Shown: positions 16,039-39,928, numbered from the stretch's first letter. The stretch: DNA of 64,000 nt from Minisyncoccota bacterium (GCA_035546615.1 DASZWM010000003.1:32001-96000); one strand, 5' to 3'. Numbers and translations: made by a program. Notes: generated by a model from the letters alone, not told the origin.

Positions 16039-16359
16039 TTAGAATTCCTGCGCGGTTGGCTTGTCATTAATGCCCTGGTCGGCGCTCGTTTCGTCACTGC
16101 CGAGCCCCTGCAGCTGCAGGTCTACCGCCGCGCTGTCCTGCGCTATCGCCGCGTCCGAAACGTCGTCGCTTGCGGTCGGCAAGTCGGTAACGGGCGGCTG
16201 CGCCGCCGGCTGCTGCGGAGTCTCCGGCGTCGTGGTCGCCTGCTGAGCGGCCGTACCGCCCATAGTCGGCGGCAGGTAATCCTTAAGGAGCCCGCTCCAC
16301 CAGAGGCCTCCGGCGGCGACGGCGAGCAGCACGATACCGATAAGCGCTTTCATTATCAT
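16039..16359 (-). CDS. Membrane-anchored protein (GG-WW anchor, Thr/Pro/Gln-rich linker, acidic C-terminus)
   Basis: MIMKALIGIVLLAVAAGGLWWSG... The ATG is at 16359 (the track has TTG at 16365). Confidence 0.45.
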   Translation of the reverse strand: MIMKALIGIVLLAVAAGGLWWSGLLKDYLPPTMGGTAAQQATTTPETPQQPAAQPPVTDLPTASDDVSDAAIAQDSAAVDLQLQGLGSDETSADQGINDKPTAQEF

Positions 16360-16465
16360 AAGCAAGGGAAATTAACGTATAGTAGGACCTCGGTCCAGTA
16401 TACTCTCCCCGGCTTGGGTGTACACGATTTTATTCACCGCCCGGGCCGTCGCGCGGCTTGGGATG

Positions 16466-16966
16466 CTAGCGCTGGTTCTCCTCCAGCAGGCGCTTGTCCT
16501 CTTCGGTCGGCTCCAAATCCAGGCATACCGAGTTCAGGCAATAGCGCTTGCCGGTCGCGGTAGGGCCGTCGTCAAACACGTGGCCCAGATGGCTGCCGCA
16601 GTTGGCGCACAATACCTCCGTGCGGTGCATGCCGTAGGCGTTATCGGCCTTAAACTCCACCGCGCCCGGAAGCGCCTGGTCGAACGACGGCCAGCCGGTG
16701 CCGGAGTCGAATTTCGCGCTGGAGGCGAAAAGCGGATTGTTGCACGCCGCGCAGCGGTACACGCCGTCGCGATCTTCGTGCAGGAGCTTGCCGGAGAACG
16801 GCGCCTCCGTCCCGCGCTCGCGCAATATCGCGTACTGCTCGGGCGTGAGCTTCTGCTTCCAGCCCTCCTCGTCGCGCGGCATGTCGTCGTGGTCGTGATG
16901 TGTATTGGAATTAGTCATAGGTTTTCTGTCGAATCGATAGGTATAAGTATACAAACTCCTACTCAT
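16466..16966 (-). CDS. msrB: Peptide-methionine (R)-S-oxide reductase MsrB
   Basis: SelR domain with CxxC...CxxC zinc site and catalytic RYCLNSVCL. An alternative ATG lies at 16918. Confidence 0.9.
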
Positions 16967-17657
16967 AGACTACTTCTGTTATCTCCGCGTGCGGGTTCGG
17001 TATGACGCACAGGACCTTTCCGGCTATCTTAAAGTCCTCGCGGAGCACTATCGGGCGGTACTTGGGGTTCTTGGATTCCGGATACAGTATCGTGACGCCG
17101 TTCTTCTTTTCGTAGCGCTTCACCGTCACCATATCGCCCACTATCGCCGCCACCCGGTCGCCGTTCTGCGCCTCGTCGGTAAAGCGGATAAGCACGTAGT
17201 CGCCCGGATTGATGCCCGCGTCCTGCATGGAGTCGCCTACCGCGCGCACCGCCACGATGCCGCCCTCTTCCCCCGCGCCGCGCGGAGCAACCTCCTCGCC
17301 GCGGTACGGCCCGTCGGCTATGGTCTTGTCCACTTCAAGGAATTCGTCGTACTGCTCCTGCGCAAAAAGGCTCAGGTCGTCGCAGCCGACGTTCGCCACC
17401 ACCGGCACGCTGACCGTCCGGTTGGGCATGCCGTCGGAATCGGCATTGCGCAGCTCTATGTTGCGGCGCGCGTGCTTGCGGCGGTAGATGTAGCCTTTTT
17501 CCTCCAGCGCCTCCAGATACTGCGTCACGGTGCGCAGCGACTTGAGTTTGAGGCTCGCCTTGAGCTCCTCCAGGGTCGGCGGCTCCTTGTGCTTGAGCAT
17601 GTAGGCCTCAAGCGTATCGAGCACGTGCTGCTGTTTAATTGTGAGTGCGTGCTGCAT
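16959..17657 (-). CDS. lexA: LexA repressor (S24 peptidase)
   Basis: N-terminal wHTH, Ala-Gly cleavage region VANVGCDD, and a GDSM...K catalytic dyad region. Confidence 0.95.
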
Positions 17658-17760
17658 ACCTACATACTAAACCAGGTCTTTTTTGTGTGCAATACACAAC
17701 ATACACAAGTTGGGGATAACCGGCGCGACAAGCGTGCACACAAGTCTTTAGGCTACAGAG

Positions 17761-18381
17761 ATGGCTATCGCCCGCACCGCAGACCAGGGGAAACTATTTG
17801 ACTTGCCGCTGTCGCTCCCCAACGGATTGGTCTACCGGCCGGATTTCCTGACGCCCGAGGAAGAAGAACTGTTGCTGGCGTACGTAGAGAATCTGCCGAT
17901 GGTGCACCCCACATTCGAAGAGCACGAGGCAAAACGGCGGCTTGCCGCGTTCGGCTGGAGCTACGACTTTGAGCGCGAAAAGCTTATCGAGGGCCCGCCG
18001 CTTCCGAAATTCCTGCATCCGGCGCAAAGGAAGATCGCCAAATGGCTCGGTATCTCCCCCGCCCGGGTGGTTGAGGCGCTGGTGCAGGAGTACACGCCGG
18101 GCTCGGCCATAGGCTGGCACCGCGACAACGAAAAGTTCGAATCTATCATCGGCATTTCGCTCGCGGGCTGGTGCAGGATGCGTTTCAGGCCCTTGGGCCT
18201 GAAACAATCAAGAAGTAGGCCGCTCGCAGCGAAAGATGTTGTGGCTCTGGAGCTCGAACCCCGCTCCTGCTACATCATGCAGAAGGACGTGCGGTGGAAG
18301 TGGCAGCATTCGGTGGCGCCCGTCAAAACCCTGCGCTATTCGATAACGTTCCGGACCCTGCCGGAGGGGTTTCGGCCCTAA
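17761..18381 (+). CDS. alkB: AlkB-like 2OG-Fe(II) oxygenase (alkylated DNA repair dioxygenase)
   Basis: IGWHRDNE (HxD) ... H ... RYSITFR motifs. It is divergent from lexA. Confidence 0.85.
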   Translation: MAIARTADQGKLFDLPLSLPNGLVYRPDFLTPEEEELLLAYVENLPMVHPTFEEHEAKRRLAAFGWSYDFEREKLIEGPPLPKFLHPAQRKIAKWLGISPARVVEALVQEYTPGSAIGWHRDNEKFESIIGISLAGWCRMRFRPLGLKQSRSRPLAAKDVVALELEPRSCYIMQKDVRWKWQHSVAPVKTLRYSITFRTLPEGFRP

Positions 18382-18686: not shown

Positions 18687-18695
18687 TTTTTCCTG

Positions 18696-19403
18696 CTACT
18701 CGAGCGTTATCGAGTTTATGACCATCGGCTCGACCGGACGGTCGCCCGGGCCCGTCGGCGCGCTTTCTATGGCCTTAACCACGTCCATGCCCGCGGTCAC
18801 CTTGCCGAAGGTGGTGTGCTTGTCGTCCAGGAAGTTGTTGGCCGCGGTATTGATGAAGAATTGCGAGCCGTTTGTATTAGGGCCGGCGTTGGCCATGGAG
18901 ATGGTGCCGATGTCGTTATGGTTGTTCGCGCGTATCTCATCGGCAAACTGGTAACCCGGGCCGCCGGTGCCCCAGCGCGCCGCCTGGCTGTCGTCCTTGG
19001 AAAGCGGGTCGCCGCCCTGGATCATAAAGCCCGGAATGACGCGGTGGAACTTGGTGCCGTTGTAAAAGCCCTCCCCCGCGAGCTTCGTGAAGTTGGCGAC
19101 GGTGTTGGGCGCGTCGGCGCTGAAGAACTCTATCGTAATGTCCCCCTTATTGGTGTGGAGTAGCGCGTGCATGACTGTGTGTGGATTAGCGCTGCTGGTA
19201 ACGTCTTGTGTCTGCTGTATCGCCTCGGGCGAGAGCTCCTGCGGCACTCCGCCCTGTCCGGTAGGCGGGGCGCTCGGGGCGCCTGTTGTCGAGTACGCGT
19301 CGGCCGCGGATGCGGGGGGCGCGGGCGGCCGGTTCATAAAGTACCAGCCCCCGAGGGCCATGACTAGCAGGAGCGGAAAAATGGTCAGTACCGTCTTATC
19401 CAT
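18696..19403 (-). CDS. ppiB: Peptidyl-prolyl cis-trans isomerase, cyclophilin type, membrane-anchored
   Basis: Cyclophilin motifs (FHRVIPGFMIQGGD, SMANAGPNTNGSQFFI) follow an N-terminal GGWYF anchor. Confidence 0.9.
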   Translation of the reverse strand: MDKTVLTIFPLLLVMALGGWYFMNRPPAPPASAADAYSTTGAPSAPPTGQGGVPQELSPEAIQQTQDVTSSANPHTVMHALLHTNKGDITIEFFSADAPNTVANFTKLAGEGFYNGTKFHRVIPGFMIQGGDPLSKDDSQAARWGTGGPGYQFADEIRANNHNDIGTISMANAGPNTNGSQFFINTAANNFLDDKHTTFGKVTAGMDVVKAIESAPTGPGDRPVEPMVINSITLE

Positions 19404-20054: not shown

Positions 20055-20213
20055 ATGAACAATTCAAGCAACGTAAATACGATCCTCATAGTGGTGGTGC
20101 TGGTGCTCTTGGTGGGCGGCGGCGTGTGGTGGTACAAGACCTACGGCCCGGGTGCCGCGCCCAAGGACGGCGGAGGCCTTAACATCCAGATAGGCGGCGA
20201 CAGCAGCCAGTAA
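20055..20213 (+). CDS. Small membrane-anchored protein (52 aa, GGGVWWY anchor)
   Basis: Not in the ORF track (below its size cutoff). An ATG with a TM helix plus the GG-WWY motif, followed by a terminator. Confidence 0.4.
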   Translation: MNNSSNVNTILIVVVLVLLVGGGVWWYKTYGPGAAPKDGGGLNIQIGGDSSQ

Positions 20214-20288: not shown

Positions 20289-20828
20289 TTACGGCTTGAT
20301 GACGAACCACACGCCTCCGTTGCCCTGGCCCGAAGCCTTTCCGGCTACGGTGTCCTTGGAGTAGAAGTACAAGGGCTTGCCATTGTACGTCACCTGGAGC
20401 GAGTTATCCGCGCGGCGGATAGTGCCTACGGTGCCGCTTACGTTGTCCGGAGCCTTGATGCTCGCGGAAGAGGAAACGGTGAACGGCGGCCACGTGTCTG
20501 CGCACGAGCCGGTGCAGTTGGAGACGCCGGTCGCGTCGCCGTCGTAGGTGTAGACGGCCATGCCGTTGTTGGCGGTCAGGAACTGGCCGAGCGTCGCGTC
20601 CGCGGTAATGGCCAGGACGTTCGTCTGGGTCGGGTTAGTGTTGCCCGCCGGAACGGTGCCGCCGGTATTCGGCTGGCCCGCTACGCCCTGATCATTGGTG
20701 CCGTTGTCGCCGGCCGTATCGGCAGCCGGAGTGCCCGGAAGCGCCATTTGTCCTGACGACCAGTACCAGTACGCTCCGCCGACCACGAGAAGCGCGGCGA
20801 CGACTGCGATAACAGTAGATGTTTTCAT
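20289..20828 (-). CDS. Exported protein, COG4315-like (YxWxxD-type secreted repeat)
   Basis: GG-YWYW anchor, then YTYDGD...CTGSCADTWPPF...TYNGKPLYFYSKD..GQG.GGVW motifs. Confidence 0.55.
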   Translation of the reverse strand: MKTSTVIAVVAALLVVGGAYWYWSSGQMALPGTPAADTAGDNGTNDQGVAGQPNTGGTVPAGNTNPTQTNVLAITADATLGQFLTANNGMAVYTYDGDATGVSNCTGSCADTWPPFTVSSSASIKAPDNVSGTVGTIRRADNSLQVTYNGKPLYFYSKDTVAGKASGQGNGGVWFVIKP

Positions 20829-22141: not shown

Positions 22142-22540
22142 CTACAAAATTGAGATAACTTTCTTAACGACGGAGTCTGAAGCACTCTTGAGTCGATGTT
22201 CCCATATTCTTAATACCTTCCAATTCATACTTTTTAATTGTTTATTAACCAATCTATCTCTTTTCTTATTTCTTTCTATTTTGTTAGTCCAATATGCGCG
22301 ATTTGTCTTTGGAACTCTACAGTGAGTCTTACATCCGTGCCAAAAACAAGAGTCAATGAAAATTGCTGTCTTAGAAACAGAAAAAACAATATCAGGTCTG
22401 CCTGGCAATTTTGCCACATGAGTTGTAAACTTTAGTTTACTTTTTTTCAGTTGCTTCTGAAAAGATTTTTCTATACCTGAATTTCTACTCTTAATGAGAC
22501 GCATTATTTCGCTGCGTCTTCCAGAAGATACATTGTCCAT
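22142..22540 (-). CDS. vsr: Very short patch repair endonuclease Vsr
   Basis: FIDSCFWHGC...P.TN..YW..KI..N..RD motifs. Confidence 0.9.
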   Translation of the reverse strand: MDNVSSGRRSEIMRLIKSRNSGIEKSFQKQLKKSKLKFTTHVAKLPGRPDIVFSVSKTAIFIDSCFWHGCKTHCRVPKTNRAYWTNKIERNKKRDRLVNKQLKSMNWKVLRIWEHRLKSASDSVVKKVISIL

Positions 22541-22544
22541 GCCT

Positions 22545-23612
22545 TTATTCTTCTATATCCCAACCTGTTGGAAGTGTGATTTTGGTATAGGCTCTTTCTT
22601 TGATAAAAGGGACAATCTCTGCGCTCGAAGGAAACTCTGCGTCAAATTCTCTCGTTAAATCACTTAACAAAGTGCCAGCAAGTCGTTCTCTATATTCTTT
22701 ACTGAGGCAAAGAGTATACCAGTCATGCAAATCTTTAAGAGTAATTATTCCTTGCACACGCTCAATAATCCCGAGCTGTTGTAGCAGGGCCTCAATAGGT
22801 TTCTTTTCTGCGTCTCGACAAACAATTACAATCCTGTCCGCTTCGATTCCCTCGACAATTCCTTCGGTTACTTCAGGAGTAAGTGTAAGGTGTTTTACCT
22901 GGATAGCTGTTCCAAAATTTGCCCACATATCTAATCCCCTATCCGCCGCATTCGTTACGCCAACTCTAAAAAGGGCTGCGGGCATAGCTACTTGAGTCTT
23001 TCTGGCATCTATGCCTAAAACCATTTTTATAAAACCTTCAAAATCAGTAAGTATTTCTTTGTCTTCATTTTTAATCGAAAGGGTGATTTCCGCTTTTAAT
23101 GCTCGTACAATAGCGGAAAAAAGAGCATGCACTGCTATTTCATATATTTTATCTGTGCTTCGTCTCAAGCCAGGACTTGATGTAAAAAGTTCCACTAATT
23201 CCATTATGGAAAAAGTGTCCACTGTTGACTGTTCGATATAGTCTCTTACCCGATGAACAGATAGTAACTTATTTTGTAAAGCTTTATAAATATAAGCCTC
23301 TACTCCGCCCTTACTTGTTGTATTTATTTTTCCTAACACTGCCAATAGTTGGGGCGGCATAGCATTAGGCTCAAAGATATTATCTTGGTACTTTGCGCTA
23401 GAAGTACTGCTCCTCCCAACAAGTAAGGTGGAGACTTCATCTCTCCAACGTTTAGAGACAGAGCGATAACTTTCTAGATCAGTTAGTTCTAGCTTTTTCT
23501 TAGTTCTATGATAGAAAAGTATCTCCGCTATCTGTATAGGTTTATAGAAGTGCACTCTGGCCTTCTTTATAACTGAATCCAGAGCCGCTTTTGCTTCTTC
23601 AGCCATTGACAT
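22545..23612 (-). CDS. Putative type II restriction endonuclease (family unassigned)
   Basis: The 355-aa ORF lies between the C5-MTase and vsr and overlaps the MTase stop by 14 nt. No family was identified by eye. Confidence 0.5.
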   Translation of the reverse strand: MSMAEEAKAALDSVIKKARVHFYKPIQIAEILFYHRTKKKLELTDLESYRSVSKRWRDEVSTLLVGRSSTSSAKYQDNIFEPNAMPPQLLAVLGKINTTSKGGVEAYIYKALQNKLLSVHRVRDYIEQSTVDTFSIMELVELFTSSPGLRRSTDKIYEIAVHALFSAIVRALKAEITLSIKNEDKEILTDFEGFIKMVLGIDARKTQVAMPAALFRVGVTNAADRGLDMWANFGTAIQVKHLTLTPEVTEGIVEGIEADRIVIVCRDAEKKPIEALLQQLGIIERVQGIITLKDLHDWYTLCLSKEYRERLAGTLLSDLTREFDAEFPSSAEIVPFIKERAYTKITLPTGWDIEE

Positions 23613-24621
23613 ACGCCCGTTCTACCATATTTATGTCTTTTCCGCTAAACAATTCAGTTTGTTCAATAAAAGGAACCGGGTCTTTCGACATTGCTTCAAC
23701 CATTGCGTGGGCCACTGCTTCCATCTGAGGAACCACTACAGCATTACCAGCTTGCTTCCGGATTTGCTGGTCAGCAACAACAAATTTATATGAATCGGGA
23801 AAACCCTGTAATCTAAACATCTCTCTAGGAGTCAGTCTTCTTTCTCCATTTACAATAAGATAGTTATATGAACCATTAGCCCTAAGAGCGCATGAATAAG
23901 CATTCACGCCTAGGTTTCCAGACTTATTTTCGTGCAAGATTAACGGACGAGAATGAAGTTCTTTGTGTTGTTCTTTTAATTGTCTCTGGACTTTCTGCAA
24001 CATATAATCGCTAAGAAAGTGTTTTTTATCGACCTCATTATCAGGCTCAAGGATGTCTTCAAGAGTTTTCTTTTTTCCCCTCCCTTTGGTAGGAAATTCA
24101 AAAGGGTAGTTTTCTCTAAAACCTACAATCATTATTCGCTCTCTCTTTTGCGGAACGCCAAAATCTAGACCATTTAAAACTTTAAAGTGCACAAAATAAC
24201 CTAGTTTTCTTAAACTATTTAGAATTACTGAAAACGTCCTTCCTTGATCATGATTGGTAAGTTGTTTTACATTTTCCAAAAATAGAGCTTTTGGTTTCTT
24301 TGCCTTTAGAATTCTCTCAACATCAAAAAACAACGTGCCTCTTGTTTCAGAGAAACCTTTCATATTCCCCATGATGCTAAAAGCTTGGCATGGAAAACCG
24401 CCTGTCAAAATATCATGGTCAGGCACATCTTTTGCAACTATTTTCGTTATATCTCCATCTGGCTGGTCGCCGAAATGATTCTTATACATCTTCTGCGCAG
24501 CTTCATCCCATTCTGATGTAAAAACACATTTACCTCCTGCCGCTTCAAAACCAAGTCTAATGCCTCCAATTCCTGCAAAGAGATCGATAAAAGTAAATTT
24601 ATTCTTATTCGTTGGAGCCAT
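23599..24621 (-). CDS. dcm: DNA (cytosine-5)-methyltransferase
   Basis: Motif I FIDLFAGIGG, motif IV GGFPCQAFS, motif VI ENV, motif VIII QRRERI-like. Confidence 0.95.
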   Translation of the reverse strand: MAPTNKNKFTFIDLFAGIGGIRLGFEAAGGKCVFTSEWDEAAQKMYKNHFGDQPDGDITKIVAKDVPDHDILTGGFPCQAFSIMGNMKGFSETRGTLFFDVERILKAKKPKALFLENVKQLTNHDQGRTFSVILNSLRKLGYFVHFKVLNGLDFGVPQKRERIMIVGFRENYPFEFPTKGRGKKKTLEDILEPDNEVDKKHFLSDYMLQKVQRQLKEQHKELHSRPLILHENKSGNLGVNAYSCALRANGSYNYLIVNGERRLTPREMFRLQGFPDSYKFVVADQQIRKQAGNAVVVPQMEAVAHAMVEAMSKDPVPFIEQTELFSGKDINMVERAYVNG

Positions 24622-24851
24622 AGAGCAATATATTTTAACACCTATTTTAAGCTTGCTATATTTTTAATAATAGCACTGAAATCTATATTTATACACAATA
24701 TACACAAGTCTTGGGGATAACTTTAGTGAGGGCCGTTTTTGGTCCAGGATAGCCGTATCCGCCAGCCGATAAAAATAGAGTAAGGGGGTAAAGATCAGCA
24801 ATCGTGGGATGAGCGTGTCTAATAGTCACCTAAGGATTTATAGCCATAAGG

Positions 24852-25193
24852 CTATTGTGGCAAACCCTTAATTTTGTTTCTGAAGAAATTAAATCGCATC
24901 TTAGCATAGTCCCAAAGAAAAGAGCAGAACGACTTATTTGGATGTCTTTTTATTTCACGCAAGTTCTCGAAAGCATAATTAAGTATATCTATAAATAATA
25001 ACCCTGGTACAACACCCAATGCGAATATATACCAATCAGAAAAACGTGTTTTTAACAAACTGTAAGTCGCATTTACTGCAATTCCAAGAACTACCGCAAG
25101 CGTCGCACCGAGTATCACAAATGCCCACTGTATTTGTAGACTTCTTTCCTCTTGTAAATCACCCTTGTTCATGGCGAATATATCTAATAACAA
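24852..25193 (-). CDS. Small two-TM membrane protein (candidate effector of the Ubl/E1 module)
   Basis: Two hydrophobic helices (WAFVILGATLAVVLGIAV; WYIFALGVVPGLLFIDIL). TTG at 25193 or ATG at 25172. It lies 8 nt after the upstream stop. Confidence 0.5.
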   Translation of the reverse strand: MLLDIFAMNKGDLQEERSLQIQWAFVILGATLAVVLGIAVNATYSLLKTRFSDWYIFALGVVPGLLFIDILNYAFENLREIKRHPNKSFCSFLWDYAKMRFNFFRNKIKGLPQ

Positions 25194-25201
25194 GTAAAAA
25201 A

Positions 25202-25612
25202 TTATTCGAAGAAGCTACGCAATTGGACTAATATCCAGTTTCCAAATCGTCGCCACCATGACAGGGAGGAATGAATAAAGTATGCATCCTTGATGGTATC
25301 GTCATATTCTCGCCCGTGGCGTATCTGTTCTCGAGTCATCTTCGACGCCCAAATCACTTGATTTTCAATAATCCAATAATGTGACTGACAAGGATGATTC
25401 CAGTTTCCTATTGAAGGACGTAGCGAGACCACCCCCTGCCAATCAACTAGCGTATATTCGGTCTTACGGAGAGGGGTAACGATTTTAGTGCCACAACTGC
25501 AACAGCACAAATGGCTCGCGGTTCCGAAACGTCGTGAGATATATAGAACACCACTCTCAAGCTCTCTTGGTATGAACTCAACATATTCAGGACGCACCAA
25601 CTCTGTCTTCAT
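25202..25612 (-). CDS. Cys-rich Zn-ribbon-like protein (DUF6527-like, recalled)
   Basis: HLCCCSCGTK...NHPCQSH cluster. The ATG at 25612 overlaps the E1-like gene stop (ATGA-type coupling). Confidence 0.5.
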   Translation of the reverse strand: MKTELVRPEYVEFIPRELESGVLYISRRFGTASHLCCCSCGTKIVTPLRKTEYTLVDWQGVVSLRPSIGNWNHPCQSHYWIIENQVIWASKMTREQIRHGREYDDTIKDAYFIHSSLSWWRRFGNWILVQLRSFFE

Positions 25613-26808
25613 ATACAATCCTCTTTTGTAAGGGCGTGGGTCGCAATCGTGTACAGCGAATGACGTTCTCGCACATCATCAGCATAAAAACCACACAATT
25701 GCTTCCATTTTCCCACAGCCATGGCAGCATTTAGCATATTTAGGTCCGCAACCTGCATATTACGGTACACCGCCTCGGCCGGCACTTTTGCAAATGAAAC
25801 AACTTCCGCAATATGTCCATGATGGTCGGGTGTTCCAACTGTAAAGCGACACTGTCCGCGCAGAGACGCCTGATTATCGAGTGCCAAGTCTATTCCAACG
25901 TCTATGAACGGCACACCAAGAGCAATAAGGCCATTAAGTATGTTCTTCCGGCTCTCTCCGTCGTCGATAGCAACAAACACGAAGTCGAACCCGGACAGCT
26001 CGTGGAGATGCGCGTCCTGGACATAGTAGGGATGACGCTTCAAGCCCTTGTGTATACGTTCGTATATACCACTGAACCAATCCACTTTTAGTGGATTGTT
26101 AAGCTCCTGCTTCATCGGAGCACCCGGTGCTCTAAACGCGTTGTGGAGTTCGAACGTATCCCCATCGAAAATGTGGATTTCTTTCACCGGCGTCTTAGCA
26201 ACAAGGTCGAGAATATACGAACCAGTACCACCTAGTCCTATAATCGCCACCCGACTTGCAAGGAGTTTCGCCGTGGCCGCTCCAATACCAGCACGGGTTG
26301 TTGCCATATCAGGATAATGGAATGCGAGTTCCTGAGCTTCGACTACCGCCGGTACTGGTTTTTCACTTCGTGGATCGCAAGTCCGATCAATTGCTTGAGC
26401 TTCGTGCCAAATCAGACGAACATATGTCCAGATTTTTTCGTAGTAGTCGGCATACTTGCGCTTATCAGCGTGCACACGCGAGAAGGCGACAGTCGTCTTA
26501 ATCCCATCGCCCTTATCCTCCTCAGCGTTGTTCGAAATCATCTCCGTCATTAGTTGACCATCCGCGTTGTGCGGGGGTTCTCCAATCCACCAACACTGAT
26601 GGTTGGAACATGGATTCACTGTCTTTCCGGCCGCATCAATTTCAAGTGGGCAATAGAGAATTCCAGGCACTATTTTGCCTTCAGAGGTAACAGCAGGAAT
26701 TCCCTCAATTAAAAGATGAGAGGCAGTCCCTTGAATGACCCGGAGACGAAAACCTTCCGCCTCCAACTTTGCCAAATCGGCATTATGACTTATCCGTATT
26801 TCTGACAT
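25609..26808 (-). CDS. E1-like ThiF/MoeB-fold enzyme with ~165-aa N-terminal domain of unknown fold
   Basis: VAIIGLGGTGSYILDLVAKTPVKEIHIFDGDTFELHNAFR is a ThiF nucleotide-binding motif. The N-terminal domain has conserved-looking C/H residues (YCPLE, NPCSNHQCWW, PPHN). Confidence 0.8.
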   Translation of the reverse strand: MSEIRISHNADLAKLEAEGFRLRVIQGTASHLLIEGIPAVTSEGKIVPGILYCPLEIDAAGKTVNPCSNHQCWWIGEPPHNADGQLMTEMISNNAEEDKGDGIKTTVAFSRVHADKRKYADYYEKIWTYVRLIWHEAQAIDRTCDPRSEKPVPAVVEAQELAFHYPDMATTRAGIGAATAKLLASRVAIIGLGGTGSYILDLVAKTPVKEIHIFDGDTFELHNAFRAPGAPMKQELNNPLKVDWFSGIYERIHKGLKRHPYYVQDAHLHELSGFDFVFVAIDDGESRKNILNGLIALGVPFIDVGIDLALDNQASLRGQCRFTVGTPDHHGHIAEVVSFAKVPAEAVYRNMQVADLNMLNAAMAVGKWKQLCGFYADDVRERHSLYTIATHALTKEDCI

Positions 26809-27040
26809 CGAAGTTCATATGATCGACCACATCTACACTTTGGCCCCGGCGAAGCGATCCTTCGTGTCCACCTGGCTTAGTCCATGAAACGCTGTAGCGA
26901 ACATCGCCTCCGAACGGACCAGTTGGGAATGCGAGCTTGATGACTTGCTCGTAGCTAATATCGTGTTCACCCCACTTCTCTTGAATACCGTTCACAACAA
27001 TGCTTATGGTGTGTCCATGCCCTTTATTATCGTCTGCCAT
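26783..27040 (-). CDS. Multiubiquitin-like beta-grasp protein (85 aa, no C-terminal GG)
   Basis: ISIVVNG...ISYEQVIKLAFP...RYSVSW...GQSVDVVDHMNFDVR matches, from memory, the multiubiquitin domain pattern of prokaryotic E1/E2 operons. It overlaps the E1-like gene start by 26 nt. Confidence 0.5.
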   Translation of the reverse strand: MADDNKGHGHTISIVVNGIQEKWGEHDISYEQVIKLAFPTGPFGGDVRYSVSWTKPGGHEGSLRRGQSVDVVDHMNFDVRNTDKS

Positions 27041-27224
27041 ATAATTTTAATTGTCGGCTTTTTAATTTAAGTGCGGCACCGGTCGACCGCACTTGTATCG
27101 TACACCCATTTCTGATACCCTTGCAAGGTAACTAGATGTATCAAATGTTACCTAAAGTACCATATTTGTTATATCTGATACCTGTTGTTACAACCTATAA
27201 CAAGTTACGCACAGATTTCAAATC

Positions 27225-27584
27225 ATGAGAAAATCATCCGCTACAATAAACAATGAAAGCAGATCCACAGAGCTTGAAATCCGGAAAGAGATTGGCAGAC
27301 GTATCGCTGAAATGCGTAGCAAACTGGGGCTTACAGCTCGCCTTGTTGCCAAAGAACTTCATGTCTCACGCGAAGCCATTACTCACATTGAAACAGGGCG
27401 AAACAATATATCTGCCGTATCGCTGTGGGAATTGGCGACTCTCTTCCATTGTGATATTGCTGATTTTTTCCCTGATATTCCTAATGGATATTCTTTAACT
27501 AGGGTCGATATTAATAAAGTAGCACAAATGAGTGGAAAGACAGGGGCGGCATGGGCTGAAAAGATTTTTGGGAAAAAGAAATAA
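27225..27584 (+). CDS. XRE-family HTH transcriptional regulator (CapH/ImmR-like)
   Basis: HTH_3 signature IGRRIAEMRSKLGLTARLVAKELHVSREAITHIETGRNNIS. Confidence 0.85.
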   Translation: MRKSSATINNESRSTELEIRKEIGRRIAEMRSKLGLTARLVAKELHVSREAITHIETGRNNISAVSLWELATLFHCDIADFFPDIPNGYSLTRVDINKVAQMSGKTGAAWAEKIFGKKK

Positions 27585-27588
27585 ATAT

Positions 27589-28083
27589 ATGATGTCAGAA
27601 AGAATTGAGAAAAAAGCGGAGGAAGTCTTAAGCGCACTGAATGTTAAGTCAATACCTATCTCTGTTGAAGAAATCGCGAATCAATTAAAGATCAAGATAG
27701 GAAGAGCACCTAGTAGTGAATTTTCTGGAATGTTGATTCGAAAAGATGGTCGAGCACTTATGGGTATAAATAACAGTGAAGGCACTGCGAGACAACGATT
27801 CACTATTGCGCATGAACTTGGGCATTATTTCTTACATCCACAAAATGATACTTTTGTAGACTATAGGCAGAACGAAAAAGAACCAAGAAATCATAGAGAA
27901 CGAGAGGCTGATATGTTTGCAGCAGCACTCTTAATGCCTAGGAAAGAAGTAACAAAAGACTTTCAGAAAATTGTTAGGAAAGGATTTTCAGAAATTGAAC
28001 TTCACAAACTGGCAGGAAAATATGAAGTGAGCGACAAAGCAATGAGATTTAGGTTAGTAAACTTAAATATGCTATTAGGTTAA
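27589..28083 (+). CDS. ImmA/IrrE family Zn-metallopeptidase (CapP/ImmA-like)
   Basis: HELGHYFLH HExxH motif in the COG2856 fold context. It lies immediately downstream of the XRE gene. Confidence 0.85.
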   Translation: MMSERIEKKAEEVLSALNVKSIPISVEEIANQLKIKIGRAPSSEFSGMLIRKDGRALMGINNSEGTARQRFTIAHELGHYFLHPQNDTFVDYRQNEKEPRNHREREADMFAAALLMPRKEVTKDFQKIVRKGFSEIELHKLAGKYEVSDKAMRFRLVNLNMLLG

Positions 28084-28087
28084 GATT

Positions 28088-28348
28088 TTATTGTCTACTC
28101 CCTTGTGATCCTAATCTATCCGTAAAAGGTCCCTCACGATGGGCCGCCGGATCTACATCCTTTTTTGTAATAACCTGGGGAAAGCGGGTATTTTCTTCAA
28201 TCTGCTCTAGTAACGTGACTATTCTGTTCAATTTCCAGTACCAGGTAAGGATTTCCCTGATCAGGAGGAATATCAGAGCGCCCACGCATAGGACAAAAAC
28301 GATATTTGGTAGCTGGGACCAGTAATATTGAAATAAGGGTTGAAGCAT
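28088..28348 (-). CDS. Small membrane protein (one TM helix), downstream partner of AbrB-like gene
   Basis: IVFVLCVGALIFLLI helix. Coordinates are from the track. Confidence 0.4.
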   Translation of the reverse strand: MLQPLFQYYWSQLPNIVFVLCVGALIFLLIREILTWYWKLNRIVTLLEQIEENTRFPQVITKKDVDPAAHREGPFTDRLGSQGSRQ

Positions 28349-28351
28349 ATA

Positions 28352-28540
28352 TTACTTCTTCCAGTCGCGGATTATCAGCTTCTTTCTCTTCAGATCCACC
28401 TCTACGGTGAGCTTTTGGCGCTCTTTCCACTTGAACTTGCGGATAGCCTCCACCGGAAGCGCGACCGTATAGGTACTTCCCCGCCCCGTCTTGGTGAGCT
28501 TGCGGACCTGCTTTTTCTGCCCCGCCTTCGGCCGTGCCAT
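28352..28540 (-). CDS. AbrB/MazE/SpoVT-like small DNA-binding protein (candidate antitoxin)
   Basis: VRKLTKTGRGSTYTVALPVEAIRKFKWKERQKLTVEV resembles the looped-hinge helix fold. Confidence 0.45.
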   Translation of the reverse strand: MARPKAGQKKQVRKLTKTGRGSTYTVALPVEAIRKFKWKERQKLTVEVDLKRKKLIIRDWKK

Positions 28541-28600
28541 GCGGATATGATACCACCGAACTCCTGAGCTAACTCAAGAGTTAGCTCAGGAGTTAATTAA

Positions 28601-29039: not shown

Positions 29040-29465
29040 TTAGGACCTCTTCCCTGCCGGCTCCATGTAGAAGATCCAGAACTCCAGCGACGAATTGCCG
29101 ACATCCACCATCCAGCCGTGGGCGTACTCGTCGCCGTTATTCACCACGCCGTAGTCGATGTTTACTTTCCCGACCTGGACCGGACCGACCTGGTTGAGGC
29201 CGCAGCGGGGATAGCCGCGAGCGTCGACCTCCTGGTGATACACGGTGTATAGCGCCGTGCTTTCGGCCGGATCCCGATAGCGGGCGTCCAGGAGGGTCTT
29301 CAGATCTTCCTGAGATTTGCACCACAGGACCGGCTGGCGGAACCAACCGTAAAATTCCTCGCCCGGCGGCTGCGCCGAGACGGGAGCTACGAGGCACGCC
29401 ATGCACGCGAGAGCAATCAAAGAACGGTTGAACATCTTGGACCTCGTTGGTTGGTCCTTGGACAT
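29040..29465 (-). CDS. Secreted hypothetical protein
   Basis: Signal peptide MFNRSLIALACMACLVAPVSA from the internal ATG at 29435. Confidence 0.5.
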   Translation of the reverse strand: MSKDQPTRSKMFNRSLIALACMACLVAPVSAQPPGEEFYGWFRQPVLWCKSQEDLKTLLDARYRDPAESTALYTVYHQEVDARGYPRCGLNQVGPVQVGKVNIDYGVVNNGDEYAHGWMVDVGNSSLEFWIFYMEPAGKRS

Positions 29466-32585: not shown

Positions 32586-33455
32586 TTACCTGCCGAGCAC
32601 GAGGCTGCGGCGGATGAAGTCGAACTCGGTGACGAGCTTCGCCTTGTCAAACGCGGTTACCGTGCCCTCCGGATAGTTCCCTAGTTGCGTTGAGTGTATG
32701 TAGTAGCGCACCGCGGTGCACGGATTGGTCCCGGGTATGGAGAACACCGCTTCGTCGTAGAGGTTGCCCGCGCCCGCGCCGCTTGAAGTAGCGGCCGAGT
32801 AATCGACGCCCGAATCGCTGAAGGTTATCGCCTTGCCGCCGTCCAGGAAGGACGTTGCGAGACACGCGCTATTTCCCGGAAGCCACTCAACGCTGATGTA
32901 GGAATCTTTAGACAGGTTGGTGCCTTGCGCGCTCGAGGCGGGAATGGTGAACTTCACGCCCGAAATATTCTTGCCCGGGCCGAGCGCCTGGTACGTATAG
33001 GGCGCGGCCGTGTAGCCCGCCGGGAAGCGGAGGCTGAAGCCCGCGGTCGAGGTCGCGTATACCTGGTTGAGAAGCCCTGTGGCGTCCGGAGCGACCATGA
33101 CGCAGCCGCTGTAGGTCTCCTGCTGGGAGGCGCCCTCCTCTACGAAGGCGGTATTGCCTTTGCCCCAGAAGACGAAGCTCTCGTCCTGATTGGCATAGCG
33201 GATGCCCGAACCCGAAACGGCCTGCGGGAGCGCCATGGTGCGGCCGTCGCTGAGGCTGAGCGCCACGCTCCCCTCAAAAAATGCCGCGCTGATGGAGCGG
33301 CCCGCGTCGCACGCGAATGCGGCGGTCGCGACCGGCTGGGGGCCCGCGGCCGTGTCGGCGGGCGCAGCGGACTTCGTGCCCGCGAAATACCACCACCCTG
33401 CGCCGAGGACGGCGATGAGCGCGACGACGACTATTACTGCTGTTGATGTTTTCAT
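32586..33455 (-). CDS. Exported hypothetical protein (GAGWWYF anchor)
   Basis: N-terminus MKTSTAVIVVVALIAVLGAGWWYF, paralogous to the 20289 gene. Probably beta-rich. Confidence 0.55.
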   Translation of the reverse strand: MKTSTAVIVVVALIAVLGAGWWYFAGTKSAAPADTAAGPQPVATAAFACDAGRSISAAFFEGSVALSLSDGRTMALPQAVSGSGIRYANQDESFVFWGKGNTAFVEEGASQQETYSGCVMVAPDATGLLNQVYATSTAGFSLRFPAGYTAAPYTYQALGPGKNISGVKFTIPASSAQGTNLSKDSYISVEWLPGNSACLATSFLDGGKAITFSDSGVDYSAATSSGAGAGNLYDEAVFSIPGTNPCTAVRYYIHSTQLGNYPEGTVTAFDKAKLVTEFDFIRRSLVLGR

Positions 33456-33866: not shown

Positions 33867-34358
33867 TTATTCTACGACCCTGATAGTCCCGTAATTCTCC
33901 TCGTCGCGGTGGTTGTGATAGTTGAACGAGCCCACCTTGTCGAAGGTGAAGGAGAACGTGTCGCCGGTCGAACACTGATCAAACGGCTTGGAGCCCGCAT
34001 AGTCCGCCGCGCAGTGCTCGGAACGGGTCGTGCCGTCGTAGCCGTCGTGGTCGGGGTGCGGGGCGCTGCCGATCCACATATCGGTACCGCTCCGGTTGAC
34101 CCAGGTAACGGTGCCGCCTTTCTTGATAGTTACGGTCTGGGGCTGGAAAGCGGCAGCGGCGGTATACGTGACGGTTGCTTCCATAGGAGCCTGCGAGACA
34201 TCGCCCAAGCCCTGATCTTCATTCGCGGAACCCGCCGCCGCCTGGGTATCTTCTGCCCCCGGAGCCGGAGTGCCGGTTTGCGACGTGACGTACCAGTATC
34301 CCCCGCCCACGACGATAATGAGGATGGCAAGCATTCCTACAGCTGTTTTTATATCCAT
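33867..34358 (-). CDS. Exported cupredoxin-like protein
   Basis: GGGYWY anchor, and TVTIKKGGTVTWVNRSG...H.DHDG...C...H.H resembles a plastocyanin-like fold. Confidence 0.45.
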   Translation of the reverse strand: MDIKTAVGMLAILIIVVGGGYWYVTSQTGTPAPGAEDTQAAAGSANEDQGLGDVSQAPMEATVTYTAAAAFQPQTVTIKKGGTVTWVNRSGTDMWIGSAPHPDHDGYDGTTRSEHCAADYAGSKPFDQCSTGDTFSFTFDKVGSFNYHNHRDEENYGTIRVVE

Positions 34359-34424: not shown

Positions 34425-35573
34425 TTATTGGATGAGATTCCAGGTATTCTGGTCTTCCCCGCCGTCGAATTTGAAGAATGCGACGCCCCTGATGCCGAGC
34501 TTTTTGGCGAGCGCTATCTTTTGTGCGATGGCGGTCGAGTCGCTCCACGAAAGGATATTGATGGTCTGAGCGCCTGCGGCGGCGGGACCCGCCGCCGCCG
34601 AGGACGTGCGCACGCCGGCAACGGTCGGCGTAGACGTGGCGAGGTAGGTCAGCTGTAGCTCGCCGGCGCTGTTGCGGATGGGCTTGAGGCCGAGGCTCAT
34701 CGCGAGGTCGGTGCCGTACTTGGGATTGAACGCCCAGAGCCTGCTATAGCTGTAGCCGGAGGTCGGAAGCGGCGTCACGGTGTATTCGTAGCCGTAGGTC
34801 GGGATGCCGAGCACAAGCTTTTTCTTGGAAATGGTCTGCGCGGCCAGAGTCATCACCTTCTCCACCCACGCAACGTCGGCCACGGGAATGTACGGACCTG
34901 CGGCGGTACCATTGAGCTTAACGTCGATGGCGCCCTGGTCGTACGCCATTATCTGCACGCGGTCGCAGTACTTGTTTATCTGCACGAAATCGTTGGCGTA
35001 AACGCCGGCGTCCTTGGGCGGCGTGCCGTCGTAGCGCGAGTCCAGCGGGGTGCGCGACTCGATAGTGCAGTAGACCCACTTCTGCCCCATCCGCTGGTAG
35101 AGGCCCTTGAGGAAGAGCGAGAAATAATCGCGCGTCTCGGCGTATTTGCTTTCGAAATCGATATCGATGCCGTCGAAGCCCTCGCGCACTACGAGCGCCG
35201 CCACGTCGTCCTCGAGCTTCTGGCGCGTCGTTGCGTTTGAAAGGATGCGGTGCATTGAGGCGCCGTCGCTCCACATGATGGTCGGAATATAGCGCACGCC
35301 GTTCTTCTTCGCGGCGGCGCGGAGGCTCTTCCACGGTTCGTCGGCAAAGCCGGTCGGGTCGGACAGGACGCCGGTGTTGGTAACGATGTAGCCGAACGGA
35401 TGCACGGCCGTGAGGCTTGCGATGCGCGGCAATACGTCGGCGGTGCCGGTTGCGGCGCGCCAGTACGGGATCCAGCCGGACACCTCAAGCGCGGACTTGA
35501 GAGGCGCGGCGTGCGCCGCGCCGGGGAGTGCCATGAGAAGGCCGAGTATGGAGAATAGGAAAAAACGCTTCAT
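34425..35573 (-). CDS. Glycoside hydrolase family 18-like (chitinase-like) secreted protein
   Basis: Signal peptide. GFDGIDIDFE matches the GH18 DxxDxDxE catalytic motif. Confidence 0.7.
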   Translation of the reverse strand: MKRFFLFSILGLLMALPGAAHAAPLKSALEVSGWIPYWRAATGTADVLPRIASLTAVHPFGYIVTNTGVLSDPTGFADEPWKSLRAAAKKNGVRYIPTIMWSDGASMHRILSNATTRQKLEDDVAALVVREGFDGIDIDFESKYAETRDYFSLFLKGLYQRMGQKWVYCTIESRTPLDSRYDGTPPKDAGVYANDFVQINKYCDRVQIMAYDQGAIDVKLNGTAAGPYIPVADVAWVEKVMTLAAQTISKKKLVLGIPTYGYEYTVTPLPTSGYSYSRLWAFNPKYGTDLAMSLGLKPIRNSAGELQLTYLATSTPTVAGVRTSSAAAGPAAAGAQTINILSWSDSTAIAQKIALAKKLGIRGVAFFKFDGGEDQNTWNLIQ

Positions 35574-36876: not shown

Positions 36877-37326
36877 CTATACCCCTTGTTTCGTGATGGC
36901 TGCGAAGTCCGCGCCGCGGCCATCCGCGGCGGTAATGGCTCCGCGCTTGAGCACGAGCTTGTCGCTGTCTTTGAAGACGCCTATTTCCGTTCCCGAAGCG
37001 CCGTTGCGGCAGATGACGCCGGAGAGCTCGCCGGGAAGATACGCGACCGATCTGCCGTTTATCTCGTCGCACTCCCCCGGGTACGCGCCCGCGGGAAGGT
37101 CGACGCCCGCGACATGGAGCACGACGACGGTGGTAGTCGCCTGCGCGCCTGCGGCGGGCACTATCTCAAAATTCCACACGAACTGGCCGCGCAGGGTTTC
37201 GTCGACGAGCGGCTGGGTATGAAAGCTGTAATACGCGAACCATCCGGCAAGTATGACGACCGCCGCCACGGCGGCGATGACGGGCCACTTATACTGCTGG
37301 CCCTGCTCGTTTTGTTCTTCAGACAT
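36877..37326 (-). CDS. Membrane-anchored hypothetical protein (AGWFAYYSF anchor)
   Basis: N-terminal TM helix plus a soluble domain. Confidence 0.45.
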   Translation of the reverse strand: MSEEQNEQGQQYKWPVIAAVAAVVILAGWFAYYSFHTQPLVDETLRGQFVWNFEIVPAAGAQATTTVVVLHVAGVDLPAGAYPGECDEINGRSVAYLPGELSGVICRNGASGTEIGVFKDSDKLVLKRGAITAADGRGADFAAITKQGV

Positions 37327-37377
37327 ATAGTGTGAAAGTGTACGTTACCTAGCCTGTACGATTAATGAACGGTTCAA

Positions 37378-39147
37378 TTACGCGCGGCGCTTTTCCTGCG
37401 GCTTCTTGCGCAGGCGGGTGCTGACCGGCGTTATTTCAAGATACTCGTCTTCGGCCATAACCTCAAGCCCGCGCTCGATGGTAAGGGTGTACGGCGGCAC
37501 CAGATTGATAGCCTCGTCGGAGCCGGAAGCGCGCATGTTGGTAAGCTGCTTGCCCTTGGTCGGGTTCACTTCCATCTCCTCGCCCTTGGAGGTATTGCCG
37601 ATGACCTGGCCCTCATACACTTCGGTCGCGGGGGAAATATAGAGCACGCCGCGGTCCTGGAGGTTCCAGAGGCTGAAGCCAAGCGCCTTGCCTGAGGCCA
37701 TGGACACCATGGAGCCCACGACGCGCTTTTGGATCTCGCCGGCGTACGGGCGGAATTCGATGAAGCGGCTCGAAAGGATGCCTTCGCCCTTGGTGTCGAG
37801 CACGAATTGCGAGCGGTAGCCCAGCAGGCCGCGGGTGGGGCCCTCAAATATCATGCGCACCGTCTCGCTGTGCTGGCGCATATCCTTGAGGATGCACTTG
37901 CGCTGGCCCAGGCGCTCGATGATGGGGCCCTGGAAGTCCACCGGCGTGTCGATGACGATTTCCTCAAACGGCTCGTAGCGGACGCCGTCGCGCTCTTCAA
38001 AAATAACGTGCGGCTGGGAGACCTGGATCTCGTAGCCCTCGCGGCGCATATTCTCCAGGAGAATCGCGATATGGAGCTCGCCGCGGCCGGAGACATGGAA
38101 GGTTTCGGAAGTGCCGAAGTCCACCTGGAGGCCGACGTTGACCTCAAGCTCGTGCTCGAGGCGCTCGCGGATCTGGCGCGAGGTAACGAACTTGCCTTCG
38201 CGGCCCGCGAACGGCGAATTGTTGACGAGGAAGTCCAGCGTAATGGTCGGCTCGTCGATGGCGATGGCCGGAAGCGGCGTGGCCCCGGCGTCGCTGGTAA
38301 CGGTCTCGCCGATGTAGATGTCCGGAAGGCCCGCTACAAGCACGATGTCGCCGGCCTCGGCGCTCGGTATCTCTATCTTCTGGAGGCCCTTGAACGAAAA
38401 GAGTTTCGTTACCTTGCCCTGGCGCATGGCGCCGTCGGGTTTCTTGATGAAAACGCTGTCGCCTACCGACACGGAGCCCTGGTAGATGCGGGCGAACGCG
38501 AGGCGGCCGAGGAAGTTGTCGTAGCCGAGGTTGAACGGCTGCATCATGAGCGCGCCGCCCTGCACCACATCGGCGTTGGCGGGCTTCACGTGCTCCAATA
38601 TTACGTCCAGAAGCGGCATGAGGTCCTTCGAGTCGTCGGCGAGCTTGCGCTTGGCGATACCCTGGCGGCCGATGGCGTACACTACGGGGAAATTGCTCTG
38701 GTCATCGTTTGCGCCGAGCTCGAGGAAGAGCTCCAATACCGCTTCCTCGCACTTGGCGGGATCGGCGGCCGGCTTGTCTATCTTGTTGATGACGACGATA
38801 GGCTTGAGGCCGAGCTCGAGCGACTTCTTGAGCACGAAGCGCGTCTGCGGCATCGGGCCCTCCTGGGCGTCCACGACAAGGAGCACCGAGTCGATGGAGC
38901 GCAGCACGCGCTCGACCTCGGAGCCGAAGTCGGCGTGGCCGGGGGTGTCCACGATGTTTATCTTGGTGCCCTTGTACGGCACCGAGGCGTTCTTTGCGTA
39001 AATAGTGATACCGCGCTCGCGCTCGAGGGTGTTGGAGTCCATAGACACGCCTTCCTCCCCCACGCCGGTCTGCTTAAGCAAAGCGTCGGTTAAGGTGGTC
39101 TTGCCGTGGTCCACGTGCGCGATGATAGCTATATTGCGGATTTCCAT
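37378..39147 (-). CDS. typA: Translational GTPase TypA/BipA
   Basis: AHVDHGKTT, DTPGHADF, NKIDK G-motifs. The track ORF is extended; the ATG is at 39147 (MEIRNIAIIAHVDHGKTT). Confidence 0.95.
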   Translation of the reverse strand: MEIRNIAIIAHVDHGKTTLTDALLKQTGVGEEGVSMDSNTLERERGITIYAKNASVPYKGTKINIVDTPGHADFGSEVERVLRSIDSVLLVVDAQEGPMPQTRFVLKKSLELGLKPIVVINKIDKPAADPAKCEEAVLELFLELGANDDQSNFPVVYAIGRQGIAKRKLADDSKDLMPLLDVILEHVKPANADVVQGGALMMQPFNLGYDNFLGRLAFARIYQGSVSVGDSVFIKKPDGAMRQGKVTKLFSFKGLQKIEIPSAEAGDIVLVAGLPDIYIGETVTSDAGATPLPAIAIDEPTITLDFLVNNSPFAGREGKFVTSRQIRERLEHELEVNVGLQVDFGTSETFHVSGRGELHIAILLENMRREGYEIQVSQPHVIFEERDGVRYEPFEEIVIDTPVDFQGPIIERLGQRKCILKDMRQHSETVRMIFEGPTRGLLGYRSQFVLDTKGEGILSSRFIEFRPYAGEIQKRVVGSMVSMASGKALGFSLWNLQDRGVLYISPATEVYEGQVIGNTSKGEEMEVNPTKGKQLTNMRASGSDEAINLVPPYTLTIERGLEVMAEDEYLEITPVSTRLRKKPQEKRRA

Positions 39148-39469
39148 AGGATTCAATAAAAATCGCCCGCGAGGGGCATATATATAGTATACATCACTTT
39201 CCGCATACAGCAAAGAGCGCCCGGGAGGGCGCTCTTTGCTGTGTTCCCCACGTATGTATCTTAGGAGTTGCGGGACGAGGACGTGTCCGAGCCCGAAGAG
39301 CCGTTGTCGCGGCTGTTATTGGTGCTGCCGGCAGAAGAGCCCTGATCGCTGCCCGTGTTGCGCTTGTCGTCGTTCATATTGTTTGCCATATGATTGTATT
39401 TATTATTGCTTGAATAATTAATACTGTTCGACCTGCACTCAGTCTACAGAACCGACCCTGAAGAGCACA

Positions 39470-39928
39470 TTAAGGCCTCCCGCCCTGCATCTGCGTGGCC
39501 CCTGCGGGCCGTATCTGCACCGACTGCGCGGTAATGCTGCCGTCGCTGTTGCCTGAGCCCGTAACGACGACGCTTGTTCCCGGCGCCAGGTCGTCGAGCG
39601 TACCCGCGGCGCTCTTGGTAACCGCTGTCGAGGCGCTGAGGAGCACTATTTTCGTGCTGCCGTCCGCCATTTTCAGCGTTATGCCAGACGCGTCCCTGGA
39701 AAGGACTTCGCCGGCGGTAAAGCCGCCCCCCACGCGCGCATTCATGCCGCCCTGGAAGCCCGCTCCCCCGCCCGTACCCATGCCGCGGGTGAATGCGGCG
39801 CCCGCGAACTGTCCGCGGCCCTGGCTGCCGCTCTTTGCATACAGCGTGCCGGCCCAGAACGAGGCGCCGACAAGCACGACCGCTATGACGCCCGCGATGA
39901 TCTTCGTATTGTTGCTTATGGTGTTCAT
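39470..39928 (-). CDS. Membrane-anchored Gly-rich hypothetical protein
   Basis: TM anchor plus a Gly-rich soluble part. Confidence 0.45.
   Translation of the reverse strand: MNTISNNTKIIAGVIAVVLVGASFWAGTLYAKSGSQGRGQFAGAAFTRGMGTGGGAGFQGGMNARVGGGFTAGEVLSRDASGITLKMADGSTKIVLLSASTAVTKSAAGTLDDLAPGTSVVVTGSGNSDGSITAQSVQIRPAGATQMQGGRP

Follow-up and report, generated by a model that had tools for sequence, protein, structure and literature searches.

Nine proteins encoded in a 64,000-nucleotide stretch of a Minisyncoccota bacterium genome (GCA_035546615.1, DASZWM010000003.1:32001-96000; this whole stretch is referred to as the window, and positions are counted from its first letter) begin with a similar leader, in which a hydrophobic helix ends in a pair of small residues, mostly glycines, and is followed at once by a cluster of aromatic residues. 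These nine leaders probably represent an uncleaved Sec signal-anchor of type II (N-in/C-out) whose outer end is stereotyped, as suggested by the sequences and by a structural model. In the proposed arrangement, a short tail, usually with a single Lys, would stay in the cytoplasm, 11-15 aliphatic residues would traverse the bilayer core, and the Gly-Gly (or Gly-Ala, Ala-Gly) pair would lie about one helical turn beneath the outer surface. Two to four Trp, Tyr or Phe residues would close the helix with one final turn among the outer lipid head groups, as an 'aromatic belt' that often has a counterpart in a Trp close to the inner end, and a disordered tether rich in Pro, Ala, Thr, Ser and Gly would keep the extracytoplasmic globular domain close to the cell surface. 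In this apparently single-membrane, sortase-bearing lineage, the leader would thus replace the lipoprotein lipid anchors or the periplasmic retention used elsewhere by the same domain families.

The motif, defined as the regular expression (?!AA)[GA][GA].?[WFY]{2} at the C-terminal end of a hydrophobic segment, is present in 9 of the 21 N-terminal single-segment proteins of the window (43%), where local shuffles expect 0.4 (binomial p = 8e-11). It appears in only one of 47 internal hydrophobic segments and, among multi-pass proteins, in none of 15 first helices; the window has no case at all of the mirror motif, placed at the N-terminal side of hydrophobic segments. A six-frame scan of the window for 11 strongly hydrophobic residues followed by the motif returned nine occurrences, each at the start of a real gene and 20-41 residues past an in-frame stop, with none in non-coding frames and none in internal helices. 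Since the regular expression was taken from the window's own examples, these figures are descriptive, and the unbiased tests are provided by related loci and homologue families. Eighty Paceibacteria loci (1.3 Mb, about 1,270 proteins), sampled independently, carry the motif in 16 of 245 N-terminal anchors (~6%) as compared with 9 of 816 internal segments (Fisher p = 1e-5), with 2.6 anchors expected from shuffling. These loci, together with two close relatives and three homologue families, stood in for a scan of the whole proteome. An earlier reading of the window from its sequence alone (the sequence-only reading) had made its proposal depend on the frequency of the motif after transmembrane helices relative to composition, and this frequency is far above expectation in both sets. 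The same reading had described a Pro/Ala/Thr/Gly-rich linker behind the anchor, and in the window the motif is indeed carried by 8 of the 9 anchors followed by a P/A/T/S/G/Q/N-rich linker and by 1 of the 9 without. When residues were profiled by position relative to the last aliphatic one, the result was too blurred to give a usable signal. Overall, the motif is non-random, and its specific place is the outer end of single helices at the N-terminus, chiefly those with a linker behind them.

With regard to the proteins themselves, eight had already been listed in the sequence-only reading, and all eight open reading frames (ORFs) were recovered with the same coordinates and N-termini. The protein 16039-16359 carries its leader on the minus strand (16297..16359, MIMKALIGIVLLAVAAGGLWW, followed by a P/T/Q/A-rich linker) and has no Pfam domain; its start is ambiguous, with an alternative TTG at 16365. 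The cyclophilin peptidyl-prolyl isomerase (PPIase) 18696-19403 has a minus-strand leader at 19338..19403 (MDKTVLTIFPLLLVMALGGWYF) and a Pro/Ala-rich linker, while the 52-aa small membrane protein 20055-20213, without a Pfam family, has the only plus-strand leader (20055..20135, MNNSSNVNTILIVVVLVLLVGGGVWWY). The remaining leaders are all on the minus strand. They belong to the Lipoprotein_15/COG4315 protein 20289-20828 (20760..20828, MKTSTVIAVVAALLVVGGAYWYW), which matches the 'SCO0930 family lipoprotein' model; to the protein 32586-33455 (33384..33455, MKTSTAVIVVVALIAVLGAGWWYF), whose MliC domain, going by its Pfam name, is a membrane-bound lysozyme inhibitor; to the cupredoxin-like protein 33867-34358 (34290..34358, MDIKTAVGMLAILIIVVGGGYWY), with a weak Pfam cupredoxin match; to the protein 36877-37326 (37222..37326, WPVIAAVAAVVILAGWFAYYSF), which has no Pfam domain and whose 13-aa tail is net-acidic and ends in K13; and to the Gly-rich, DUF5666-like protein 39470-39928 (39839..39928, MNTISNNTKIIAGVIAVVLVGASFWAGTLY), with a weak Pfam DUF5666 match. 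The ninth leader, beyond the span covered by the sequence-only reading, is that of an HlyD/MacA-type adaptor (42105-43736, '...KVISAAAIVVLVGGGWWAYS'), in which the signal-anchor (43620..43736) consists of a basic tail of 21 aa followed by VISAAAIVVLVGGGWWAY; the adaptor gene adjoins MacB-type ATP-binding cassette (ABC) genes at 39980-41260 and 41386-42099. A weak tenth case is the DUF192 protein 3-413, with 'AVAVFLLYYSF' and no Gly. Apart from their leaders the proteins are unrelated, as had been described, since Pfam gives either no family or mutually unrelated globular domains (cyclophilin, Lipoprotein_15, MliC, HlyD and, weakly, cupredoxin and DUF5666), and the C-terminal PPIase, MliC, cupredoxin, Lipoprotein_15 and HlyD domains are of extracytoplasmic type. 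A Lys precedes the helix in eight of the nine leaders, and the residues preceding the aromatic cluster are AGG, LGG, GGG, GGA, GAG, LAG or GAS.

A resemblance of this kind could in principle be a chance or compositional artefact, in which a GC-rich codon bias supplies Gly, Ala and Trp, or could reflect the recent duplication or gene conversion of one 5' segment. The genome does have a GC content of ~57-60%, with a value near 0.8 at third codon positions (GC3), and the MKTST common to two leaders is encoded by almost the same codons. Even so, such an origin has almost no probability. Shuffles that keep the local composition, the non-coding frames and the mirror position all speak against chance, and relatives with 36-47% GC retain the motif. 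At the DNA level, the leaders are just 30-62% identical between genes, identical residues often differ in codon (overall, about 4 in 10 share it), and the upstream regions are not alignable, by which recent duplication or gene conversion is ruled out and from which it follows that the resemblance is maintained at the protein level. Furthermore, the orthologues of each family conserve the motif separately. The two MKTST starts (20814-20828 and 33441-33455) are written in A/T-ending codons (ATG AAA ACA TCT/TCA ACT/ACA) in this genome of GC3 ~0.8, possibly as a result of selection against stable mRNA structure around the start codon and not of anchor function.

The conservation of the motif is apparent at several distances. 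In a sister species (88% identity; locus L081), the leaders of four orthologues are identical or near-identical, and in a syntenic relative (JGI Ga0501082_0000001, with a MacA 69% identical; loci L083 and L084) the motif is kept in all nine orthologues. The six motif positions are 80% identical between the window and the syntenic relative, the transmembrane core is 51% identical and the next 20 residues are 48% identical. For instance, the leader of 16039-16359 is identical in L081 and retained in L084, and that of the cyclophilin reads 'ILILGGWYFMN' in L081, 'AAALGGWYFL' in L084 and 'VLGGYYYAT' in locus L021. The orthologues in L082, a locus of the syntenic relative, have 'AVIGAGWWFY' in the MliC protein, 'IILAGWFMYYSF' in the counterpart of 36877-37326 and 'ILMGASFWGG' in the Gly-rich protein, the last of which shows 'VVVGGVSFYAG' in L001.

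Homologue families give the same picture, and the check proposed in the sequence-only reading, of whether orthologues keep the motif, thus has a positive outcome. Among Lipoprotein_15 homologues, 74 of 120 have the leader, typically as 'MKTSTxxWxxxxxxxxxGG(A/G)WYWW(S/T)', and longer homologues (240-310 aa), taken to lie outside the candidate phyla radiation (CPR), present AxA or lipobox signals in its place. In an alignment of 72 leader-bearing Lipoprotein_15 homologues, a set pre-selected with a loose regular expression for the leader, the leader columns (M K T S T, W8, G17 G18 and W/Y 19-22) hold 2-4.6 bits, like the folded domain, and the linker columns 0.4-1 bit. The leader is also found in 99 of 120 cupredoxin homologues, and the motif in 57 of 120 HlyD/MacA adaptor homologues, where it appears as 'h-GGGWWAY' behind basic tails of roughly 20-33 aa. 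A profile built from these N-termini, as the sequence-only reading had suggested, covers 34 positions and only the nine window leaders; searched against 1.84 billion cluster representatives, it retrieved 90 proteins at E <= 1e-3. The match lies within ~75 residues of the protein start in nearly all of them and at the very start in most. Most of the top matches are homologues of the small protein 20055-20213, dozens of them with the same leader; this protein belongs to a widespread family of small membrane proteins 42-70 aa in length ('MNNSSNVNTILIVVVLLILVGGGVWWYKTYGPGA...GLxINIGG'). Neither Pfam nor NCBIfam has a model that matched the leaders even at E <= 1, and a search with a consensus leader peptide returned only noise.

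The leader had also been called lineage-specific. It is common across Paceibacteria/Patescibacteria families and richest in the source genome and its closest relatives, which are likewise the motif-richest of the 80 loci. To judge from how members differ within families and from the gradient that the relatives show, the description is right in the sense of lineage-enriched. No described signal-anchor motif of Patescibacteria was found in the literature searched, an absence that is not proof that the motif is undescribed.

The geometry of the leaders is that of a membrane-spanning helix. In the three families, GG lies 11-15 residues past the last charge, and 18-21 residues separate that charge from the end of the aromatic cluster, an uncharged span that corresponds to one bilayer crossing, for which about 18-23 residues are taken as sufficient. 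An AlphaFold2 model of the Lipoprotein_15 protein 20289-20828, based on a 54-sequence alignment, shows one 22-residue helix (residues 3-24) that passes through G17-G18 and AYWYW, followed by a disordered linker (25-66, with a predicted local distance difference test score (pLDDT) mostly <50) and a domain at ~67-178 with pLDDT >90. Many leaders also have a Trp near the inner end ('MKNVWIW...GGGYWYW'), and Trp/Tyr belts have been reported to be stronger in helices that serve only as anchors (PMC5525207). Periplasmic adaptors are held by an N-terminal transmembrane helix or by lipidation (PMC4446572). As MacA-type adaptors need membrane attachment, the presence of the motif in adaptors favours an uncleaved anchor; released adaptors would be lost from a single-membrane cell. 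The adaptors with the motif, the lack of a polar c-region and the conserved aromatic residues after GG make it likely, if indirectly, that the leader stays uncleaved. The orientation would be N-in/C-out, with the aromatic cluster fixing the helix at the interface and the Gly pair acting as a hinge, or else leaving room for the packing of bulky Trp side chains. Thus, the signal-anchor with an aromatic belt put forward in the sequence-only reading appears well supported computationally by the 18-21-residue span, the AlphaFold2 helix, the MacA-type adaptors, the conservation among orthologues and the existence of a separate AxA class.

Several observations weigh against an anchor of this description. 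The AlphaFold2 confidence of the helix is just ~73-76 and the model is membrane-free. Directly ahead of the aromatic cluster, the leaders have G/A/S at -1 and G/A/L at -3, and their aliphatic core of 11-15 residues is within the length range of signal-peptide h-regions; N-terminally anchored proteins and signal peptidase I substrates are hard to distinguish (PMC2375117). The exact conservation of 'MKTST' and 'GG' is not an obvious need of a plain anchor and may indicate an additional function. Moreover, the full motif is missing in about half of the adaptor homologues and in several of the window's type II anchors (sortase, SBP_bac_5), from which the motif appears to be a preference and no requirement.

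Some of these points would suit a cleavable Sec signal peptide, which signal peptidase I would cut after GG[G/A] or a few residues later, so that the domain would be released or loosely attached through its aromatic N-terminus. The residues at the putative -1 and -3 positions conform in all nine leaders, the length of the core and a tail that is usually short with one Lys resemble signal peptides, and the attached domains come from families that are secreted or periplasmic elsewhere. The sequence-only reading had considered the leaders to be unlike cleavable signal peptides for lack of an AxA site. AxA is indeed missing, and the leaders stand apart from the AxA signal peptides of the same genome; nonetheless, it was too strong to take this as ruling out cleavage, given that the Gly, Ala and Ser residues formally meet the signal peptidase I rule of a small -1 and a tolerant -3 residue. 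Five exported proteins of the window (15270-16037, 13683-14828, 11537-12190, 34425-35573 and 29040-29465) have clear, classical signal peptides with Pro...AxA and a polar c-region, and in the syntenic relative all three of those compared keep AxA, whereas the nine leaders have the small -3/-1 residues with neither the polar c-region of 3-7 residues expected of a signal peptide nor a Pro. To judge from their sequences, the GG-aromatic leaders and the AxA signal peptides are two distinct, evolutionarily stable N-terminal classes. In the leaders, GG is directly followed by hydrophobic aromatic residues that are predicted to be helical and that, although past the supposed site, are the best-conserved part; GG itself would sit one turn inside the bilayer. 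Cleavage is also difficult to reconcile with the same motif behind the longer cytoplasmic tails of MacA-type adaptors, which are necessarily membrane-attached, and a long disordered tether is sensible only if the N-terminus is still anchored. Signal peptidase I cleavage is therefore unlikely, and a less likely account of the leaders than the uncleaved anchor. Conversely, the exactness of the conservation would suit a dedicated sorting or processing tag, in which GG-aromatic and the recurrent MKTST would be read by lineage-specific machinery, by analogy with YSIRK; candidate readers are an intramembrane protease that sheds ectodomains, a specialised insertase or a factor for localisation to host-contact sites. 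Sequence-specific conservation past the needs of hydrophobic anchoring, and one leader common to unrelated families across Patescibacteria, point in this direction. Helix-destabilising Gly pairs are typical of intramembrane protease substrates. On the other hand, no candidate enzyme is linked to the leaders in the window, save a sortase with its own C-terminal FPNTG substrate, and no signal of this kind is represented among the curated models of Pfam and NCBIfam. The motif is also graded and degenerate, becoming weaker as relatives grow more distant, and half of the adaptor homologues lack it. Since the biophysics of anchoring explains all the observations as well, a dedicated tag seems unlikely. 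A broader version, which also seems improbable, is that of a Patescibacteria-specific functional signal: either a tag for a lineage-specific factor (intramembrane protease, insertase or localisation factor) that would control the display or shedding of the surface proteome in episymbiosis, or an adaptation that would let single-pass anchors float in scavenged host-lipid membranes of variable thickness, with the Gly pair as a hinge.

The uncleaved anchor has counterparts among known systems. The N-terminally anchored type II surface proteins of monoderms (LocateP, PMC2375117) share with the leaders a short positive tail, a single hydrophobic helix and the lack of a lipobox or LPXTG, and in them too an extracytoplasmic enzyme or binding domain is tethered to the membrane by a Sec-dependent, signal-peptide-like segment. 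The leaders differ in their stereotyped outer helix end (G-G/A, then two to four W/Y/F), which is conserved across unrelated families and a large lineage; no such GG-aromatic consensus for Firmicutes or Actinobacteria anchors is described in the papers and libraries searched. Trp and Tyr at the lipid-water interface, often at both ends of the helix, are also a feature of aromatic belts and of Trp-flanked WALP peptides (PMC5525207, PMC2841270). However, an ordinary belt consists of single residues that are statistically enriched, while the leaders have two to four contiguous aromatics always preceded by the Gly pair, and this cluster with its Gly pair occurs on the outer side only, in N-in anchors. 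Lipoprotein signal peptides (Lgt/LspA) tether the same kinds of domain (Lipoprotein_15/SCO0930, MliC, solute-binding, PPIase and adaptor-type) to the outer face of the cytoplasmic membrane through a flexible linker; in contrast to these, the leaders have no Cys or lipobox and the peptide helix would itself be the anchor. The YSIRK-G/S and KxYKxGKxW signals of Gram-positive cocci are likewise lineage-restricted motifs within a generic Sec signal on unrelated surface proteins, but they belong to signal peptides that are cleaved, where they occupy the n-region or early h-region and influence the site or route of secretion, whereas the leader motif is at the C-terminal end of an apparently uncleaved anchor and bears no sequence resemblance to them. 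The GlyGly-CTERM/rhombosortase system and the Gly-containing substrates of intramembrane proteases also have Gly-Gly beside a transmembrane helix in exported proteins. GlyGly-CTERM signals, nevertheless, are C-terminal, run from GG through the helix to a basic tail and are accompanied by a gene for their own enzyme, whereas the leaders are N-terminal with the helix first. In function, the leader is best described as the monoderm 'N-terminally anchored' class with an exaggerated aromatic belt. What appears to be new is the stereotyped Gly pair with a contiguous W/Y cluster, often with MKTST, across unrelated families and at high frequency in the clade.

Other types of N-terminal signal were considered and rejected. 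A lipoprotein signal (lipobox [LVI][ASTVI][GAS]C) does not fit, as none of the nine leaders contains a Cys; in the Paceibacteria sample, 2 of 266 N-terminal hydrophobic segments have a convincing lipobox. The sole lipobox-like string of the window is an 'IASC' in the helix of the SBP_bac_5 protein 5775-7547, behind an N-terminal tail of 30 aa. No G-F-T-L-x-E is present in the leaders, which excludes a type IV pilin or class III signal and agrees with the earlier remark that they are unlike pilin leaders; a genuine pilin in locus L047 ('KKQSGFTLIETLVAV') is quite different from them. A twin-arginine (Tat) signal (S/T-R-R-x-F-L-K) was discarded since RR occurs in none of the leaders, and YSIRK, KxYKxGKxW and other curated sorting signals were discarded for lack of any Pfam or NCBIfam match. 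GlyGly-CTERM/rhombosortase was rejected because the leader motif is N-terminal and in reverse order; no rhomboid-family gene was seen among the part of the window proteins that was scanned.

As for the source organism, all of the 80 best genome loci to the window are from Patescibacteria/Paceibacteria (Parcubacteria), the window TypA is 80% identical to that of a Candidatus Adlerbacteria metagenome-assembled genome (MAG), and two window proteins match proteins of a 'Candidatus Paceibacterota bacterium' MAG (locus tag VHD55_01365) at 100% identity, from which the source can be placed as a Paceibacteria (Parcubacteria) MAG of the CPR. Gene calls were codon-based, resting on the strong GC3 signature (~0.8) of real genes. 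The sortase (10852-11571), with an N-terminal anchor of its own ('ILVGGVDVL'), adjoins a 217-aa protein (11537-12190) that combines the classical AxA signal peptide with a C-terminal 'FPNTG', a hydrophobic helix and a basic tail and is likely a sortase substrate with a variant LPXTG motif. This sortase/FPNTG-protein pair, which is kept in the syntenic relative (L084, 19124-20486), indicates a Gram-positive-like, single-membrane envelope. The GC content of the window is 57-63% apart from a low-GC island at ~22.1-28.6 kb (22142-28556; GC 0.42-0.48 as compared with 0.57-0.63 in the flanks). It encodes a HaeII-type restriction endonuclease, a C-5 cytosine methylase and Vsr, an operon with a prokaryotic Multiubiquitin, DUF6791/ThiF (E1-like) and DUF6527, and an HTH_3 and Peptidase_M78 (ImmA/IrrE-like) pair. 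Since the syntenic relative lacks it, a mobile or defence island has probably been inserted here. The interval from TypA to the Gly-rich protein holds a 42-aa ORF rich in Ser, Asn, Asp and Gly (39261-39389), and a 42-aa gene is called at the matching position of L082 (14352-14480). Additionally, the contig of the sister species (GCA_037975565.1; L081) has apparent frameshifts at 11439-12365 and 12462-13065, by which its cyclophilin reads through to 308 aa and its genes for LexA and an AlkB-like protein are split; the probable cause is misassembly and not biology.

Patescibacteria, or CPR bacteria, make up a large share of bacterial diversity, and their cultivated examples live attached to host cells, which makes surface proteins central to their biology. 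A simple conserved signature that marks membrane-tethered exoproteins, including a widespread family of small proteins of 45-60 aa, would permit the surface proteome of uncultivated Patescibacteria to be listed from sequence only, and would point out a class that general-purpose predictors might mistake for either secreted or membrane proteins. It also hints at the way in which lipoprotein anchoring is replaced in a lineage where lipobox signals are very scarce. The leader offers a natural, strongly selected 'Trp-flanked helix' design on which ideas about interfacial anchoring can be tested and, if dedicated machinery does read the motif, it would be a new bacterial sorting signal.

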